DNA of 64,000 nucleotides. Origin: a virus. Its lineage: Duplodnaviria; Caudoviricetes. The stretch spans positions 23,116 through 87,115 of the IMG/VR virus record IMGVR_UViG_3300035424_000154; one strand, written 5' to 3'. Positions 7,403 through 56,053 of this stretch are shown here, piece after piece. Both the position numbers and the translations under genes were made by a program. Below the pieces are notes generated by a model. That model ran no database searches and was not told the DNA's origin. It saw only the letters and a program-made list of their open reading frames with translations. Position 1 is the stretch's first letter. Each line of letters begins with the position of its first letter.

Positions 7403-7708
7403 ATGAACAGTATGCTATTCAGCAAGCAGTCAGCGCCTACCCCCCCCATCTCGCACGACATTCTCATGGAAAAGCAGAACGAGGTGGCTCGGCTGGCCCG
7501 ACAAGCAAACGAGGCAGTTGACCTCGTGACCCGCACTATCAACGATTTGGAGGGTATCAACCAGCAGATCGACGGTGCATTGTCTGAGATCGACGCCTAC
7601 GCTCAGGAGCTGGCCGCGACTCGTGCGGCTATGTCCAAACAGCGGAGCAACAATACCGCTATCATTTCTAACTTCGCAAAGCTCCTGGATACCAGCAGCG
7701 CGGAGTAG
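7403..7708 (+). CDS. Small coiled-coil protein
   Basis: AAGGAG RBS; heptad-rich 101-aa ORF. Confidence 0.65.
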   Translation: MNSMLFSKQSAPTPPISHDILMEKQNEVARLARQANEAVDLVTRTINDLEGINQQIDGALSEIDAYAQELAATRAAMSKQRSNNTAIISNFAKLLDTSSAE

Positions 7709-8720: not shown

Positions 8721-8840
8721 GCGGGCGTAGCTCAAGTGGTAGAGCAACCGACAATACAAAGTGTGTCATGGTATGACACCAACAGCAATTTCTTTGGAAA
8801 AATCAGTTTGTTGGAGGTTCGAGTCCTCCCGCCCGCATCA
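8721..8840 (+). ncRNA. tRNA-like RNA F (Phe-GAA-like) with 51-nt anticodon loop carrying the module
   Basis: GCGGGCG/CGCCCGC acceptor, canonical D and T arms, ACCGA/TCAGT stem, GTGTCAT/ATGACAC hairpin then ACAGCAA (8782-88); ends ATCA. Confidence 0.8.
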
Positions 8841-11412: not shown

Positions 11413-12561
11413 ATGATCTATCTGGACAACGCGGCCACAACTCCTACTTTCTCAGAGGTTTTGGAAGCCATGTTGCCATGGTTCCAGCCTGAGCGAGTGG
11501 GCAACCCTGGAAGTATTCATACCCAAGGCGTCAAAGCCCGTAACGCTGTTGAGAAAGCCCGTAAACAAGTGGCGCGGATGATTGGCGCTGAACCTTCTGA
11601 GATTTTTTTCACTTCTGGTGGAACAGAGTCCAACAACACATGGTTGCAATGTGCTAAAGACAGAGTTGTGCAGAGGCCAATTATCTTAACCACTAAGATT
11701 GAGCATCATTCTGTAATCGAGCCGATTGAACACAGTTCCTACCACCGTGCAGAGTATGTCAAGGTTTATCGTGACGGTTCAGTTAATCTTGACGACTTGG
11801 AACGGTTGCTCCAGCTTCATCGTGAAGAAGTTGGCGGCGTCTCCATTATGTGGGTGAATAATGAGCTGGGAACGGTCAACCCCATTAAAGAAATCGGAAC
11901 GCTTTGCAAAAAGTACAATGTGCTGTTCCATACAGATGCGGTACAGGCAGCAGGCCATGTTGCTATGGACGTTCATGATTGCAATGTGGACTTTCTTTCG
12001 CTCTCTGGTCACAAATTCGGCGCTCCTTTGGGTACTGGCGTGCTGTACATCAGTAACTCTATCCGAAAACATCCGTTGATCGTTGGTGGTGGACAAGAAC
12101 GAGAGATGCGAGGCGGCACAGAGAACGTACCCGGAATTGTGGGCATCGGTAGAGCCGCCGAGATCGTAACTGGCCGACTGTTGGTCAATAGGCAGTTGTG
12201 GAGCTACCATCGCTCTGTGTTTTTGACTGAGCTTGGTAAAAATATGTATGGGGAGTTCAAAATCAACGGCGACACAGAGAATTACCCTTCAAATATTATC
12301 AGCATGACGATTCCCGGCGTGAACAGTGAATCACTTTTGTTGCTGTTGGATCAGCAGGATGTTTATATCTCTGCTGGCTCTGCGTGTAGTGCGGCCAGTT
12401 CTGAACCTTCACACGTTTTGCAAGGGGTTGGGATTTCCAATGAAGATGCGGCTTGCACTGTGCGAATCTCTATGGGGTTTGCGCCCAGTTATGTCGATAT
12501 GGTGCAGGCAGCTGAAGTCATTGCAAACACAGTGCATAGGCTGAAATCTATGTATCCGTGA
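11413..12561 (+). CDS. iscS: Cysteine desulfurase (IscS/NifS group I)
   Basis: IYLDNAATT, FTSGGTES, HTDAVQAAG, SGHKF (PLP lysine), SAGSAC (catalytic Cys). Confidence 0.93.
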   Translation: MIYLDNAATTPTFSEVLEAMLPWFQPERVGNPGSIHTQGVKARNAVEKARKQVARMIGAEPSEIFFTSGGTESNNTWLQCAKDRVVQRPIILTTKIEHHSVIEPIEHSSYHRAEYVKVYRDGSVNLDDLERLLQLHREEVGGVSIMWVNNELGTVNPIKEIGTLCKKYNVLFHTDAVQAAGHVAMDVHDCNVDFLSLSGHKFGAPLGTGVLYISNSIRKHPLIVGGGQEREMRGGTENVPGIVGIGRAAEIVTGRLLVNRQLWSYHRSVFLTELGKNMYGEFKINGDTENYPSNIISMTIPGVNSESLLLLLDQQDVYISAGSACSAASSEPSHVLQGVGISNEDAACTVRISMGFAPSYVDMVQAAEVIANTVHRLKSMYP

Positions 12562-12564
12562 TTT

Positions 12565-12580
12565 GAGGCAAAATACATAG
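12565..12580 (+). promoter_or_regulatory. Element-wide intergenic motif, copy 4
   Basis: GAGGCAAAATACATAG (one base shorter). Confidence 0.65.
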
Positions 12581-13017: not shown

Positions 13018-13345
13018 CTTAAATGTTTCTGCCATCCTTGACTTCATTAGCAATTTTAAGGATGCTCAGGACACATTTCTTTACGGTTGCTGTTACTGGT
13101 TCGCCTTTATCCTCAATGAGCGCTTTGGCGGGACGACGATGTATCTTCCAGTGGAAAATCACTTTGTTCAAGCAATAGGCAAGCGTTTATATGATGTATC
13201 TGGTGACGTAACGGCAGAATACCTAACCGCCAGGATTATTCCGTGGGCGGCGATGGAGCAATATGATTCAACCATGTACCGGAGGCTAATCCGGGACTGC
13301 ATCAATAAGGAGAGATTCGACGATGACAGTATTAACTCAGGATGA
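13007..13345 (+). CDS. Hypothetical protein
   Basis: FLYGCCYWFAFIL; overlaps upstream stop. Confidence 0.55.
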   Translation: METNLNVSAILDFISNFKDAQDTFLYGCCYWFAFILNERFGGTTMYLPVENHFVQAIGKRLYDVSGDVTAEYLTARIIPWAAMEQYDSTMYRRLIRDCINKERFDDDSINSG

Positions 13346-14190
13346 GCAGAAGCGCCAGAAGATTATGGCGCGTATGCAGGAACACTTGGTTCCCGTCCTG
13401 GAACATTGTAGGGGGGGGGTGGGTCGGCCTCTTTCTGCAAGGTTCCCAAAACTATAACCTTGATTATGAGGGAAGTGACATTGATACCAAAGCTATCTTG
13501 CTTCCCAGTTTTTCCGACTTTGTTTGGAACAGAAAACCAACCAGTACGACCCACATCATGGAAAATGATGAGCACGTAGATTTCAAGGATATTCGGCTCA
13601 TGTTTGACTGCTTCAAAAAGCAGAATGTCAACTTCGTCGAAATCCTGTTTACTCCCTACTGCATTATCAATCCTATGTATGAGGATCTGCTTCAGCCGGT
13701 GCTAGATGCCCGAGAGGAGATTGCCCGCTACAACAATTATGCTGGTATGAGGTGCATTATGGGTATGGCTTACGAGAAGCAGAAAGCAATGGAGCACCCC
13801 TACCCTGCCACAATCGACAAAATCAAAGTGTATGGATATGATCCGAAGCAACTCCATCATGCTTTGAGGCTGCGGGAGTTTATGACCAGATACATGGCCG
13901 GCGAAAATTATGCTGATTGCTTGGTTAGCAAACAGCGTGATTATTTGAAAGATGTAAAGAAGGGTTGTTACTCCCTGGACGAAGCTCGTGCTTTGATGAA
14001 TGTTACGATCAAATCCATGGCTGAGGATAAGCAGCAGTATATGGAGGCTGTTCCGGCCATTATCAATGAGCACGCCGACGAGGTGCTGAAAACGGCCACG
14101 GTTGAAATTCTCAAAAGGAGCTTCCTGAACGAGATTCAAAGAGGTGATCAAGTTGCAAACGTTTTACATGATGGTTGGCCTGCCCGGTAG
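13323..14190 (+). CDS. Pol-beta superfamily nucleotidyltransferase, frameshifted at G9 (13411-19)
   Basis: GSQNYNLDYEGSDIDTK (GS..DxD); RBS plus ATG 13323 joins the main frame only if the tract is G8. Confidence 0.75.
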
Positions 14191-15091: not shown

Positions 15092-15602
15092 ATGAACCCG
15101 AATCAGTATCAGATCTCTATGCGTCCCGCTTTTGAGCCGGAGGCCATCCACGTTGAGCCATTCAATCCGATCAGTGTTCTGCTTGAGGCGTTGGGTGGTA
15201 CCCCCCCCCATCATTGCGCCTAATGGTGAGCGTGACCGTTTCGCTGACGGTTGGAACGCTGCCATGCAGCACATGAGGGACAACCCGCCTGCACCCGCTC
15301 CCCTTCCGCTGCCTACGAATGTGATCTTCAACAACCCGGCCACCATTGTGTACTGGAACGACGGTACCAAGACTGTGGTGAAGTGTCAGCCCGGAGATGT
15401 GTTCAGCGCTGAGGCTGGCCTGACCACTGCTATGCTCAAGAAGTACATGGGTAACGACAACACCTTCAACCGGGTTATCAACGAGTGGTTGAAGCACACT
15501 GGCGAGTATAAGCCGTCTGTTGCTCCTGCTTTGCCGGCAGCTGAGACGCCCGCCGCCCTGCCTGCTCCTACGGATCAGGGAGCGCCTGAAATGGTGGAGT
15601 AA
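15092..15602 (+). CDS. Hypothetical phage protein, frameshifted at C9 (15201-09)
   Basis: AGGAGG plus ATG 15092 joins the VIFNNPATIVYWNDGTKTVVKC frame only with C8. Confidence 0.65.
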
Positions 15603-15666: not shown

Positions 15667-16644
15667 ATGATGACGACAATAACGGGAATTGGGGAGGTGG
15701 GTGTTTTGCATAGTCGAGAGCAATTAGAAGAAATGCAGCGCCTACCTCTTTCCCGTAAAATCCAGATCACCACGGCCAGAATTATTGAGTGGTACCAACA
15801 CTACGATGGCAAGGTTTATGTGGCTTTTTCTGGCGGCAAGGACTCAACAGTTCTCCTTGATATTGTACGGCGCATCTATCCTGATGTGCCAGCAGTATTT
15901 TCGGACACTGGATTGGAGTTTCCAGAAGTTAGAGCATTTGCCAGGAGTTGCGAAAATGTCACCATTATCAAACCTGAGATGAATTTCCGGCAGGTCATTG
16001 AGAAGTACGGATACCCTGTTGTTTCTAAACGTGTGGCTGACGCCGTGAAATACGGTCATAAGCCAGGGTCTTTTCGCTGGAAGGAGCTACATGGCGAAAT
16101 TATGCGGAGCAACGGGACTCCTTCAGAGTTCAACTGTGAGAAATGGTGCTATCTGCTCAACGCACCCTTTAAGGTGTCTGCTCGGTGTTGTGCCGTCATG
16201 AAAAAGCGGCCTATGAAGAAATATTCCAAAGAAACCGGGCGAGTGCCTATCATTGCGACAATGGCAGACGAAAGCCGATCCCGTCGTGCTACTTGGTTGC
16301 GTTTGGGGTGTAACGCTTTTGCTGCCAAAAAGCCCAGCTCTCAACCTATGTCATTCTGGACTGAGGACGATGTACTTGAATATCTCTATACCTACAAAAT
16401 TCCCTATGCCTCGGTTTATGGCGAGATCGTCAAGACTGACGGGGGGGGGTGGACAACAACCGGAGAAAAACGTACTGGTTGTGTCTTTTGTGCCTTTGGT
16501 GCTCATTTGGAAAAGGCTCCAAACCGTTTCCAGCGACTAAAGGTTACTCACCCGAAACTCTGGAATTATTGTATGAAGCCATGGGAAGAACATGGCTTGG
16601 GTATGCGGCGAGTGCTTGAGTACATTGGAGTCCCAATAGAATAA
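15667..16644 (+). CDS. PAPS-reductase-family (PP-loop) protein
   Basis: VAFSGGKDSTVL, FSDTGLEFPE, CC pair, RTGCVFC. Confidence 0.85.
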   Translation: MMTTITGIGEVGVLHSREQLEEMQRLPLSRKIQITTARIIEWYQHYDGKVYVAFSGGKDSTVLLDIVRRIYPDVPAVFSDTGLEFPEVRAFARSCENVTIIKPEMNFRQVIEKYGYPVVSKRVADAVKYGHKPGSFRWKELHGEIMRSNGTPSEFNCEKWCYLLNAPFKVSARCCAVMKKRPMKKYSKETGRVPIIATMADESRSRRATWLRLGCNAFAAKKPSSQPMSFWTEDDVLEYLYTYKIPYASVYGEIVKTDGGGWTTTGEKRTGCVFCAFGAHLEKAPNRFQRLKVTHPKLWNYCMKPWEEHGLGMRRVLEYIGVPIE

Positions 16645-23886: not shown

Positions 23887-23903
23887 GAAGCAAAAATACA
23901 TAG
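23887..23903 (+). promoter_or_regulatory. Element-wide intergenic motif, copy 5 (abuts -35)
   Basis: GAAGCAAAAATACATAG immediately followed by TTGACA. Confidence 0.75.
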
Positions 23904-23932
23904 TTGACAGTGTGAAAATAGTGTGATACAAT
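23904..23932 (+). promoter_or_regulatory. Sigma-A promoter with extended -10
   Basis: TTGACA(23904-09)-17 bp-TG.TACAAT(23927-32). Confidence 0.8.
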
Positions 23933-23982
23933 AAAGGGGAAGTGAGGGATGCTCACATTGCTCCCTCACATCTCTCCCCAAA

Positions 23983-23999
23983 GAAACAAAAATACATAG
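23983..23999 (+). promoter_or_regulatory. Element-wide intergenic motif, copy 6
   Basis: GAAACAAAAATACATAG before AGGAGG. Confidence 0.75.
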
Positions 24000-24016
24000 T
24001 TCAGGAGGAGTTACCA

Positions 24017-24703
24017 TTGAATTATCAGACTGCCCTTTTCTGCGAGTTTGATAAGTACGCCGCAGAAAGCTATTGCGCAGTTCATGGCGTTGATCCGAGT
24101 CTTAACATCGGCGATATAACCCAGGCCGATGAGACGGTTGTCCCTGATTTCAACGTTATGTTCGGTGGGAGTCCGTGTCAGGACTTTAGCATAGCGGGCA
24201 AACAGGGGGGGGCTGCATGGAGCTGTAAAGACTGCGGTCATATTTACAACCCCTTAGAGGCTCGCTACGATCAGCGCGATTGCTGTCCCAAGTGTGGTTC
24301 AACCACTATTGAGAAGACCCGATCTTCCCTACTTGTTGAGTGGCTACGTTTTCTCAGAGAAAAGGAACCTCGCTTCGCTATTTACGAGAATGTCAAAAAC
24401 ATCACTGGCTCGCGTTTCCGCTCTACTTTCGACCTCTTTGTCAAAGAGCTGGAGGACTACGGTTACAACGTCTATTGGAAGGTTCTGAACGCGAAAAACT
24501 ATGGTATCCCTCAGAACCGTGAGCGTGTCTATTGTGTCATTATCCGCAAGGACATGGACAACGGGAACTTCAAGTTCCCCGCTCCGATTCCGCTGAAAAA
24601 AGCACTGGTGGATATGCTTGATGACAAGGTTGACGAACGCTACTACCTGTCCGACGATAAGGTAGCTGCCATGATCACCCCCCCCACTCAAACAGATCAG
24701 TAA
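24017..24703 (+). CDS. C5-cytosine methyltransferase, N-module (motifs II-VIII, no motif I)
   Basis: AGGAGG plus TTG; EFDKYA, GDIT, GGSPCQDFS, ENVKN, PQNRERV; Zn-ribbon insert CKDC..CPKC; ends after C8 tract 24678-85. Confidence 0.85.
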   Translation: MNYQTALFCEFDKYAAESYCAVHGVDPSLNIGDITQADETVVPDFNVMFGGSPCQDFSIAGKQGGAAWSCKDCGHIYNPLEARYDQRDCCPKCGSTTIEKTRSSLLVEWLRFLREKEPRFAIYENVKNITGSRFRSTFDLFVKELEDYGYNVYWKVLNAKNYGIPQNRERVYCVIIRKDMDNGNFKFPAPIPLKKALVDMLDDKVDERYYLSDDKVAAMITPPTQTDQ

Positions 24704-24886
24704 CACAGTCCGTACCAGCGGAAGAGGCTCTACAGACCGTCACTGCTGGGACTTGCTCACTTGTCGGCGTGAAGCTGAGCAAGAAAGGCACTCAGTTTGA
24801 AGGATACTGTGATACAGCCTTGACCTTGCTGGCCCGTGATTACAAAGGCTTTGGAAATCAGCAAATGACAGGAGTGGTTGAGAGAA

Positions 24887-25683
24887 ATGTGTAAACATAT
24901 TGTCCCTGCCGCTATTCGTGGAAGATATGCGGGGGGGGGACAAGATAGTTCAGCACTTGGAAGTTCGCCCTGATTTTTGTACCAACACCTTGACGGGAGT
25001 TCAGAAAGATAATGTGCTAATTGAAATATGCGAAAGCGAGGAAACCAATGTGAAAATCGTATGTGAGCAGCGTTGTGACGAAGGTGTACGCTTTTTTAAG
25101 GATGATGTCTGCGGCACCATTCGCACCATTGACGGGGGGGGGCAAAAGAGTAATGGAAATCAGTGAGAAACTTGAAGCGGGTGTCCGTGTTCGGAAACTA
25201 ACCCAGCTGGAAGCGTGGCGGCTGATGGGGTTCTCTGACGAGGACTTCTATAAAGCGCAGATCGCAATGAACCAAAATCTATACGGCGGCAATGACCGTA
25301 GCGGCTCCCAGCTTTACAAACAGGCGGGAAATTCCATCGTGGTGGATGTGCTTTGTGCCATTATGCAGGAGTTGTATGATGCCATGCCATATCTCTTCGA
25401 GGATATGGTGGTTGGCTCCTTCTTCTCCGGTATCGGCGCATTTGAAAAGGCACTTTCCACTTTTGATACCCCTTTTGATAGCGATGCAGAAAACTGTCCA
25501 GTTGAGAGTGATGAGTTAAGGCAACTCGGATATATCAACGACTACAACGGAGATGCCAACCGTGTTTATGACGGATCAACTGTTGCTCGTGCCTTGAAAG
25601 CTGAGGCTGGGGGAGGTGGAGCAAAGACTGGTTGGTACAAAATCCAACGAAGCGACCTACACAAACCGGCATTTGTCGGATAG
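24887..25683 (+). CDS. C5-cytosine methyltransferase, C-module (TRD-like segments, motifs IX, X, then I); two G9 frameshifts
   Basis: AIRGRY, NTLTGVQKDN, RKLTQLEAWRLMGF, YKQAGNSIVV, GSFFSGIGAFEKAL; G9 at 24931-39 and 25134-42; internal ATG at 25153. Confidence 0.75.
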
Positions 25684-25689
25684 AAAGGG

Positions 25690-25986
25690 ATGATTTCTAT
25701 GAACATTGAACTGAAAGATCGCAGGGAGGCATACCAGAGGGTCAAACCGAAGTGCTCTAACCGTAAGGCTATGATTCTGAATGTGCTGACCAGCGGTGAT
25801 CCTGGGGGTATGACCGCCGACGAAATCGGCGATCGGCTGGTGGCTGATGGCATAATCGCCACCAACAGTCCGAACTTCACCAGGCCGCGCCTGACAGAAC
25901 TGAAGGCCGAGGGTGTGGTTGAGGTCGTCGGCAGGCGTCCCGGCAGATCGGGGTGCAACACGGCAGTGTGGAAGGTAAAGCGCTGA
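25690..25986 (+). CDS. Small winged-HTH-like protein
   Basis: GMTADEI...RPRLTELKAEG. Confidence 0.6.
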   Translation: MISMNIELKDRREAYQRVKPKCSNRKAMILNVLTSGDPGGMTADEIGDRLVADGIIATNSPNFTRPRLTELKAEGVVEVVGRRPGRSGCNTAVWKVKR

Positions 25987-55605: not shown

Positions 55606-56053
55606 ATGAATACAGAGGTTATGTTCTCTTCCAAAGCTATGGACTGGGCGACGCCCCAAGCGTTCTTTGATCTGCTGGATTCGGAGTTTCACTTCACCCT
55701 TGACCCTTGCGCCAACGAGTTCAACCACAAATGTGACCGCTACTTTACGGAAGCAGATAACGGACTAACCAAGTCGTGGGGGGGGGCAGACAGTCTTTTG
55801 CAATCCGCCGTATGGCAGAGCGATCAAAGATTGGGTGAAGAAATGCTCCGAAGAAGCTCAGCAGCCTAACACTACTGTTGTGTTGCTGATTCCGGCCAGA
55901 ACCGATACGGCGTACTTCCACGACTACATCTATCAAAAGCCAAACGTAGAGATTCGCTTTTTGCGTGGCCGGCTCAAATTTGGAGACGGTAAGAACTCCG
56001 CTCCCTTCCCCAGCATGGTTGTTATTTTTCAGCATAGAGCCACAAATACATAA
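55606..56053 (+). CDS. Phage N6-adenine DNA methyltransferase (Dam-like), frameshifted at G9 (55778-86)
   Basis: DWATP, FTLDPCA, then CNPPYG, LIPARTDTAYFHDYI, FLRGRLKF, APFPS in the +1 frame; G8 would join them. Confidence 0.85.
56037..56053 (+). promoter_or_regulatory. Element-wide intergenic motif, copy 11
   Basis: GAGCCACAAATACATAA, identical to copy 10, overlapping stop codon. Confidence 0.65.

Follow-up and report, generated by a model that had tools for sequence, protein, structure and literature searches.

A probable run-gated, split and permuted C5 methyltransferase with switchable recognition modules in a mouse-gut phage

Introduction

When the parts of a DNA methyltransferase lie in more than one reading frame and long G and C runs interrupt them, is the gene broken, or is it built so that run length decides what is made? 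This question is raised by positions 24017-25683 of a 64,000-nucleotide stretch of phage DNA (hereafter the window), which is part of an 87,115-bp virus record (IMG/VR IMGVR_UViG_3300035424_000154). The phage is temperate, and its host group is mouse-gut Clostridia of the Oscillospiraceae. An original prediction, made from the letters alone, held that three homopolymer tracts select alternative recognition segments of a C5 methyltransferase. We find that 24017-25683 is one C5 cytosine DNA methyltransferase encoded in two translationally coupled cistrons, in which open reading frame A (ORF-A) supplies the catalytic half and a module, and ORF-B supplies modules and the closing half. The locus is, in our judgement, likely to encode a run-gated, split and permuted enzyme with switchable modules, through which the phage population can probably vary which sequences get methylated.

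We compared the locus with relatives from a scan of viral contigs, which found 298 (80 of them fetched), and from a genome scan that added 66 more. Its close clade comprises 43 loci at 79-90% amino acid (aa) identity with the window's design, including prophages of cultured Dysosmobacter segnis BX15, Hominicoprocola fusiformis CLA-AA-H269 and strain CCNA10. Individual relatives are cited by L and P numbers, and their run states rest on frames called by motif anchoring. A DNA search of deposited phages found no similarity to the methyltransferase region, and the best identity in a protein search was 41%. Length comparison within this phage used assembled contigs only, with 14 sequencing runs holding all sampled words. 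Contigs from three independent mouse-gut studies reproduced 24192-25800 with zero differences, and because they match exactly, the C8, G9 and G9 runs described below are real for this phage. All features of the methyltransferase locus lie on the + strand, and positions are those of the window unless stated otherwise.

Proposed selection between two modules at a C run

The gene carries four long runs. T1, a G8 at 24205-24212, forms Gly-Gly codons just after motif IV and is in frame (ON). T2, a C8 at 24678-24685, follows motif VIII and has the form of a three-position selector. T3, a G9 at 24931-24939, lies inside the module that we call M2 and is OFF in this copy; G8 or G11 would unite the two halves of the module. 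T4, a G9 at 25134-25142, joins module M3 to the closing part and is OFF as well, G8 being the ON length. A fifth run, degenerate GGGGGAGGTGG at 25609-25619, falls inside the module-like segment M5, at a site where relatives have G7-G10 (gaaagccgaagc-G7..10-cggagc). The runs sit at Gly or Pro codons, in or between recognition modules, and every frame change along the gene is +1.

The state of T2 determines how ORF-A ends. With C8, as here, a stop five codons on leaves a bare 228-aa core with neither module fused. In silico, one C fewer or two more (C7 or C10) reads ..ISNTVRTSGRGSTDRHCWDL.. to a stop at 24798-24800, yielding a 260- or 261-aa ORF-A that ends in module M0. One C more (C9) reads ..TLLARDYKGFGNQQMTGVVERNV to a stop at 24892-24894 and yields a 292-aa ORF-A with module M1, in which the M0 DNA is read out of frame as a 26-residue linker ahead of M1. 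M0 (..ISNTVRTSGRGSTDRHCWDLL..; ISNTVRTSGRGSTDRHCWDL) spans 24690-24767 in frame 0, with a short tail to its stop. M1 (..KLSKKGTQFEGYCDTALTLLARDYKGFGNQQMTGVVE.., ..TLLARDYKGFGNQ..) spans about 24769-24891 in frame 1, ends at the TAA 24892-24894, and is reached from ORF-A only via C9. Homologues of M0 stand directly after motif VIII in P0039, P0049, P0010, P0001 and P0100, and those of M1 occur in L041, L043, L045, P0005, P0013 and P0018.

Each module is conserved in its own frame. Across 24687-24760 (M0), the ratio of nonsynonymous to synonymous polymorphism (pN/pS) is 0.30-0.45 in frame 0 and 0.8-2.1 in the other two frames; across 24763-24885 (M1) it is 0.03-0.28 in frame 1 and above 1 in the others. 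The offset between M0 and M1 is always +1 in 24 distinct relatives, despite 3- and 6-nt indels between the modules. Because of this purifying selection in each own frame, each module must have been read in its own frame ever since this architecture came into being, which is only possible through differing C-run lengths. All three T2 states (no module, M0, M1) are found in nature, and an ORF-A of 292-295 aa ending after M1 is present in at least 16 relatives with C9. In two relatives, L023 and L082, the C run is interrupted or shortened, and M1 seems to be "locked" onto ORF-A.

Two other routes to M1 were considered and rejected. An independent mini-gene starting at the GTG at 24769 is ruled out for the close clade, as this codon is not conserved (GCG, ATT or GCA in relatives). 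A +1 ribosomal frameshift from M0 to M1 is ruled out as well, the junction having no run, slippery motif or conserved stop context.

Proposed gates of the second cistron

ORF-B begins at the ATG at 24886, which overlaps the ORF-A stop as ATGTGTAA; the overlap is retained in relatives as ATGAGTAA or ATGAATGA. Its first stretch, the first half of M2 (MCKHIVPAAIRGRYA..; 24886-24930, frame 2), differs from L003 by four synonymous changes and an in-frame 3-nt indel, i.e., it is coding in its own frame. The complete module reads AAIRGRY..QHLEVRP..NTLTGVQKDN, with T3 between RGRYA(G)n and KIVQHLEVRP. M2 is uninterrupted in L018 and L021, and the T3-equivalent G8 is in frame in L021 and L028. Read-through of the TAA between ORF-A and ORF-B was also considered, and the downstream DNA is indeed in the ORF-A frame in L006, L082 and L116. 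Read-through would nevertheless not yield M2, whose first half has its conserved frame at +1.

The second half of M2 (DKIVQHLEVRPDFCTNTLTGVQKDNVLIE) and M3 (VCEQRCDEGVRFFKDDVCGTIRTID; VCEQRCDEGVRFFK..GTIRTID) follow at 24939-25133, both in frame 0. Intact enzymes hold homologues of M3 (e.g., P0086 and P0078, at about 80% identity) and of M2 (P0061, P0126). The closing part (25144-25683, frame 1, stop at 25681-25683) carries motif IX (RKLTQLEAWRLMGF, 25192-25233), motif X (GNSIVV, 25327-25344) and motif I (FFSGIGAF, 25420-25443). It matches Pfam PF00145 at positions 273-322, with E 1.1e-07 for the IX-X part. After motif I comes M5 (NRVYDGSTVARALKAEAGGGGAKTGWY; NRVYD..ARALKAEAGGGG..; 25558-25638), which matches a module of L038 and L054. 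With G8 at both T3 and T4, ORF-B opens in silico to 264 aa; as it stands, a stop follows after 28 codons.

These results bear on most of the original prediction. It had T2, with its stop at 24703, and both G9 runs at the positions given here, and three-frame translation reproduced its C7 and C9 peptides with their stops at 24800 and 24894; its count of three tracts rises to four with T1, plus the degenerate fifth. The two frames opened by C7 and C9, which it took for overlapping recognition segments, do match modules in intact C5 enzymes, as successive modules M0 and M1 and not as overlapping ones. Conservation of both frames in homologues, proposed then as a check, was found in the 24 relatives above. 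That all three tracts select alternatives holds for the C run, whereas the two G9 runs are on/off gates of the second cistron. They do gate the segments named (AIRGRY, NTLTGVQKDN, TIRTID), of which the first two are halves of a single module split by the first G9, and TIRTID ends the next module, which the second G9 closes. The description as a methylase of the multispecific type is justified by the architecture: every segment of the variable region (M0, M1, M2 and M3), together with M5, matches a module of intact multi-module C5 enzymes.

Run-length variation

Run lengths vary widely among relatives. T1 is G8 in 26, whereas the G9 of seven others and the G7 of two invariably truncate ORF-A; T2 occurs as C6, C7, C8, C9, C10 and C11; T4 is G10 (ON) in 8 and G9 (OFF) in 13. 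The overall ON/OFF tallies are 26/9 for T1 and 8/14 for T4. Even copies only 2-4 substitutions apart over 859 nt (at least 99.5% identical) differ at both T1 and T2. The original prediction would have failed had tract lengths been invariant; they are not among relatives (G7-9, C6-11, G9-10), although they are identical in the three studies of this phage.

Run positions are kept across at least 20% protein divergence, and the modules contain no stops or frameshifts outside the runs. In a sister clade, intact genes spell the same Gly-Gly positions GGTGGT, and broken genes have G7-G12 there; because intact sister genes use GGTGGT, the runs arise through the choice of codons and are not dictated by the protein sequence. 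A Lachnospiraceae-type sister clade (L049-L066 and L073, about 60% identity) has G6-G12 runs of its own at other module positions, including inside M0 (..TGGRGS..), and the near relatives L071, L074 and L077 are intact and run-free. This distribution suggests that runs have been gained and lost repeatedly.

The runs are also more than chance at the level of the genome. G/C homopolymers in the 87-kb phage have a bimodal length distribution (43 of length 5, 1 of 6, none of 7, 5 of 8 and 6 of 9), while A/T runs fall off smoothly. There are thus 11 G/C runs of 8-9 nt, and a single C6 among lengths 6-7. In the complete 3.6-Mb genome of strain CCNA10, three of the eight G/C runs of at least 9 fall in the prophage.

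Architecture of the methyltransferase

ORF-A in its present state (24017-24703, 228 aa, TAA at 24701-24703) is the catalytic half of a C5 DNA methyltransferase (PF00145, E 1.3e-47). A ribosome-binding site, AGGAGG at 24003-24008, and a TTG start at 24017-24019 can be read directly, and this start position is common to relatives. Along the chain follow motifs II (FCEFD), IV (PCQ, 24173-24181), VI (ENV, 24386-24394) and VIII (QNRERV, 24512-24529). A four-Cys zinc ribbon (CxxC..CxxC, 24224-24295) is inserted after motif IV and before VI, and all four Cys are invariant in 42 relatives. Motif I is missing from the N-terminus of ORF-A; in canonical relatives it lies about 25 aa upstream of the point where ORF-A starts.

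All six of the PF00145 motifs IV, VI, VIII, IX, X and I are found in the window, though spread over more than one reading frame, and their order is II-VIII, recognition modules, IX, X and then I last. At 57-65% identity, most relatives are encoded by one uninterrupted gene (443-720 aa). These single-gene relatives all begin at motif II (..NFCEFDKYA..) and continue with 3-7 short modules after VIII, then IX, X and a C-terminal motif I (..SSFFSGIGAFE..). Since the same motif I segment is N-terminal in canonical relatives such as P0039, the family is circularly permuted between motifs I and II. The C-terminal motif I is invariant in 46 relatives. A permutation at this point is common to dozens of intact relatives.

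The layout in two cistrons is conserved in close relatives, where complete versions of both are present. L081, L019 and others have both ORF-A (core and M1) and ORF-B (modules and IX-X-I) open, and we therefore take the two-piece design for a working arrangement, not an accident of one locus. When the ORF-A core and the IX-X-I part were modelled together, the predicted complex received a score of 0.92 (best of three controls, 0.00), with at least 98% contact agreement between runs of the prediction and a partner pLDDT (predicted local distance difference test) of at least 93. Of 80 solved complexes, 58 attain this mark, as do 2 of 110 mismatched pairs. In the model, the motif I strand packs on motif IV of ORF-A as in the normal fold. 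As the two pieces are halves of a known fold, this pass may only mirror their likeness to solved single-chain C5 methyltransferases.

The window itself holds no continuous enzyme and no complete set of subunits, ORF-A being without a module and ORF-B limited to 28 codons. T1 is on and T2, T3 and T4 are off. Because all three of these runs are off, the enzyme is most likely silent in this copy, unless translation from an internal start yields a closing fragment that includes M5.

Weighing the explanations

Several observations weigh against a locus switched by run length. T3 is OFF in 13 of 13 relatives of the same architecture (G8 where G9 is needed), or 14 of 14 with this copy. With three runs off here at once, three independent slips would be required before the enzyme was fully active. 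The lengths C8, G9 and G9 are unchanged across the three studies of this phage, and within samples no length variants were seen at T2-T4 in assembled contigs at a word depth of about 15-50x. A single G9 variant at T1, considered as a minor form, was a 53-nt contig with four other differences and hence comes from a relative. The out-of-frame linker ahead of M1 is free of stops, but chance would leave it so in about 70% of synonymous recodings; the absence of stops adds little for that reason and is left out of the evidence.

The constancy within this phage would be expected if RNA polymerase or ribosomes slipped on the runs in a programmed way, with fixed out-of-frame DNA giving a mix of isoforms in each infected cell. 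The identical lengths in three independent studies speak for such slippage, as do the 14 out-of-frame copies of T3, 13 of them by the same -1, and the uniformly +1 direction of the frame changes. Conserved homopolymer frameshifts rescued by transcriptional slippage are known from insect endosymbionts and insertion sequence (IS) elements, though efficient slippage is documented mainly for A/T runs. On the other hand, the lengths of T1, T2 and T4 vary freely in near-identical relatives and include fully in-frame states, which a fixed slippage site does not need. Contigs from RNA libraries cover 23900-24731 and 25006-25653 and show the DNA lengths over T2 and T4, a weak argument, as minor forms are lost in contigs and DNA may have been carried over; these contigs cannot show transcription or slippage, and we do not use them as evidence of expression. 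Taken together, we consider programmed slippage unlikely.

We think it quite unlikely that the gene is simply decaying, with the runs as mere mutational hot spots in a pseudogene that has no adaptive switching. Three of the four runs are off here, identically in several mouse studies; many relatives are off at one or more runs, and ORF-B is off in all copies with exactly this module order. Decay does not, however, account for the purifying selection that has acted on every module in its own frame since this layout of frames came about, or for run sites that outlast at least 20% protein divergence between modules free of stops and of frameshifts outside the runs. Nor does it account for runs built by codon choice where intact relatives have GGTGGT, for the fully open versions, or for the bimodal lengths, which argue for selection for long runs. 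Miscalled homopolymers are a more familiar concern, since tracts of 8-10 nt are error-prone on some platforms and one lysogen draft genome has the poly-G contig ends typical of two-colour chemistry. That the run lengths are an artefact of sequencing or assembly is nevertheless very improbable: three independent assemblies agree on them, variation at the same sites recurs across isolates, metagenome-assembled genomes and viral contigs of many projects, the arrangement of frames on either side of the runs is conserved, and runs of 6-7 are almost lacking (one 6, no 7), unlike random error. A run-gated enzyme with switchable modules thus remains the reading that we hold likely.

Proposed mechanism

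Under this run-gated reading, slipped-strand mispairing during replication would alter a run by +/-1 nt. Changes at T1 (G8) would turn the catalytic half on or off. At T2, C8 would end ORF-A bare, C7 or C10 would fuse M0, and C9 would fuse M1 through the 26-residue linker, while T3 (inside M2) and T4 (at the end of M3) would gate ORF-B with M2, M3 and motifs IX, X and I. The two polypeptides are expected to assemble into one methyltransferase fold, and the attached set of modules would determine which sequences are methylated. A phage population would then be a mixture of methylation patterns, and such a mixture could hedge between hosts with restriction enzymes blocked by methylation and hosts with nucleases triggered by it.

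Other runs and upstream elements

Further long runs occur elsewhere in the phage. The window has a C8 at 7440-7447, a G9 at 13411-13419, a C9 at 15201-15209 and a G9 at 16441-16449, and outside it lie a C8 at 8750-8757 and a G8 at 11516-11523 (genome coordinates). The run at 16441 is in frame within a PAPS-reductase-domain gene (15667-16644); those at 13411, 15201 and 7440 are near the starts of ORFs (13342-14190, 15132-15602 and 7403-7708, respectively). A Dam-type methyltransferase (PF05869; 55606-56053) is broken exactly at a G9 run (55778-55786), with profile positions 11-61 before the run and 62-144, including NPPYG, after it in another frame. This appears to be a further modification gene gated by a run, and it is off in this copy.

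Upstream of the C5 methyltransferase, 23904-23932 is a candidate sigma-70-type promoter by consensus (TTGACA, 17 nt, TG-TACAAT; 11 of 12 consensus matches). The 12-mer AAATACATAGTT, allowing at most one mismatch, has six copies on the + strand of the window against 0.29 expected, at 12571, 23894, 23990, 31616, 39579 and 49973. Two of these, separated by 96 nt, lie on either side of the promoter and of a GTGAGGGA..TCCCTCAC hairpin before the methyltransferase, and others stand about 15-30 nt ahead of start codons. AAATACATAGTT may be a phage-specific leader or promoter element.

Relation to known systems

The closest counterparts are the multispecific C5 enzymes of Bacillus phages (M.Phi3TI, M.SPRI, M.Rho11sI and M.H2I), which are likewise phage-borne and have several tandem modules between motifs VIII and IX. 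The core is homologous, the catalytic half aligning with the phi3T record M13488.1 at 34% identity (E 1e-41), and the intact relatives of the window gene are, like the Phi3T/SPR type, single chains, with 3-7 modules. The Phi3T/SPR type is a single polypeptide in canonical I-X order, whereas the window gene has two cistrons with motif I at the C-terminus, a zinc ribbon insert, G/C runs in or between modules, and modules in different frames.

Contingency loci built on simple sequence repeats (SSRs) offer a second comparison. They include the phasevarions of Type III mod genes and the poly-G of NgoAV hsdS, which changes specificity by truncation. Such loci encode N6-adenine enzymes on the chromosomes of pathogens with small genomes, and a gene usually has a single repeat. 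The window gene shares with them a coding homopolymer whose length toggles a methyltransferase or alters its specificity part and differs between close strains: its repeats are long enough to slip, a change of +/-1 alters the product, and lengths differ in close genomes with conserved flanks. In contrast to these loci, the window family has four to seven runs in one phage C5 enzyme, and one of the runs picks between modules in successive frames.

Split and permuted C5 enzymes are also known. M.AquI consists of two polypeptides, and complementing fragments of M.SssI and M.BspRI have been engineered, with the cut in the variable region (PMC3404938, PMC5944983). ORF-A and ORF-B are cut in that region too, but both of the window's pieces carry modules, the second also carries motif I, and the cut coincides with homopolymer gates. 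Natural permuted "Type H" enzymes (M.BssHII, M.Alw26I, M2.Eco31I, M.Esp3I and M2.BsaI) have their permutation point in the variable region, with IX-X first (PMC5944983). The window gene resembles them in having a permuted motif order and differs in that its point lies between I and II, leaving IX-X behind the modules. A topology with motif I last is absent from the natural permuted cases in the 2018 survey (PMC5944983).

A literature search found no account of run-gated multi-module phage C5 methyltransferases. The parts are known, namely multispecific phage C5 enzymes, repeat-driven phase variation, split M.AquI and permuted enzymes of the M.BssHII type. New is their combination: the phage setting, several runs per gene, one run choosing between two modules, and motif I last. 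More tentatively, and as a possibility that we would not yet favour, one C run may act as a three-position selector that swaps specificity in a split enzyme of an unreported permutation type and, together with the gated Dam gene, may form a phage-wide combinatorial "epigenetic contingency" system against host restriction.

Implications

Phage methyltransferases are usually seen as fixed anti-restriction tools. If our reading is true, gut phages hold mutational switches that reshuffle the sequences they methylate, and one lysogen or burst could represent many patterns. This would bear on host range in dense communities, on the interplay between methylation-blocked and methylation-dependent restriction, and on how the prophage methylomes of gut isolates are read. 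It would also point to a natural toolbox of small C5 recognition modules that can be exchanged, which would help in engineering targeted methylation, and to a C5 methyltransferase that tolerates both splitting and the transfer of motif I to its end, a tolerance that would be useful for engineering as well. The system is widespread, with 298 viral relatives and prophages in cultured Oscillospiraceae and Lachnospiraceae.

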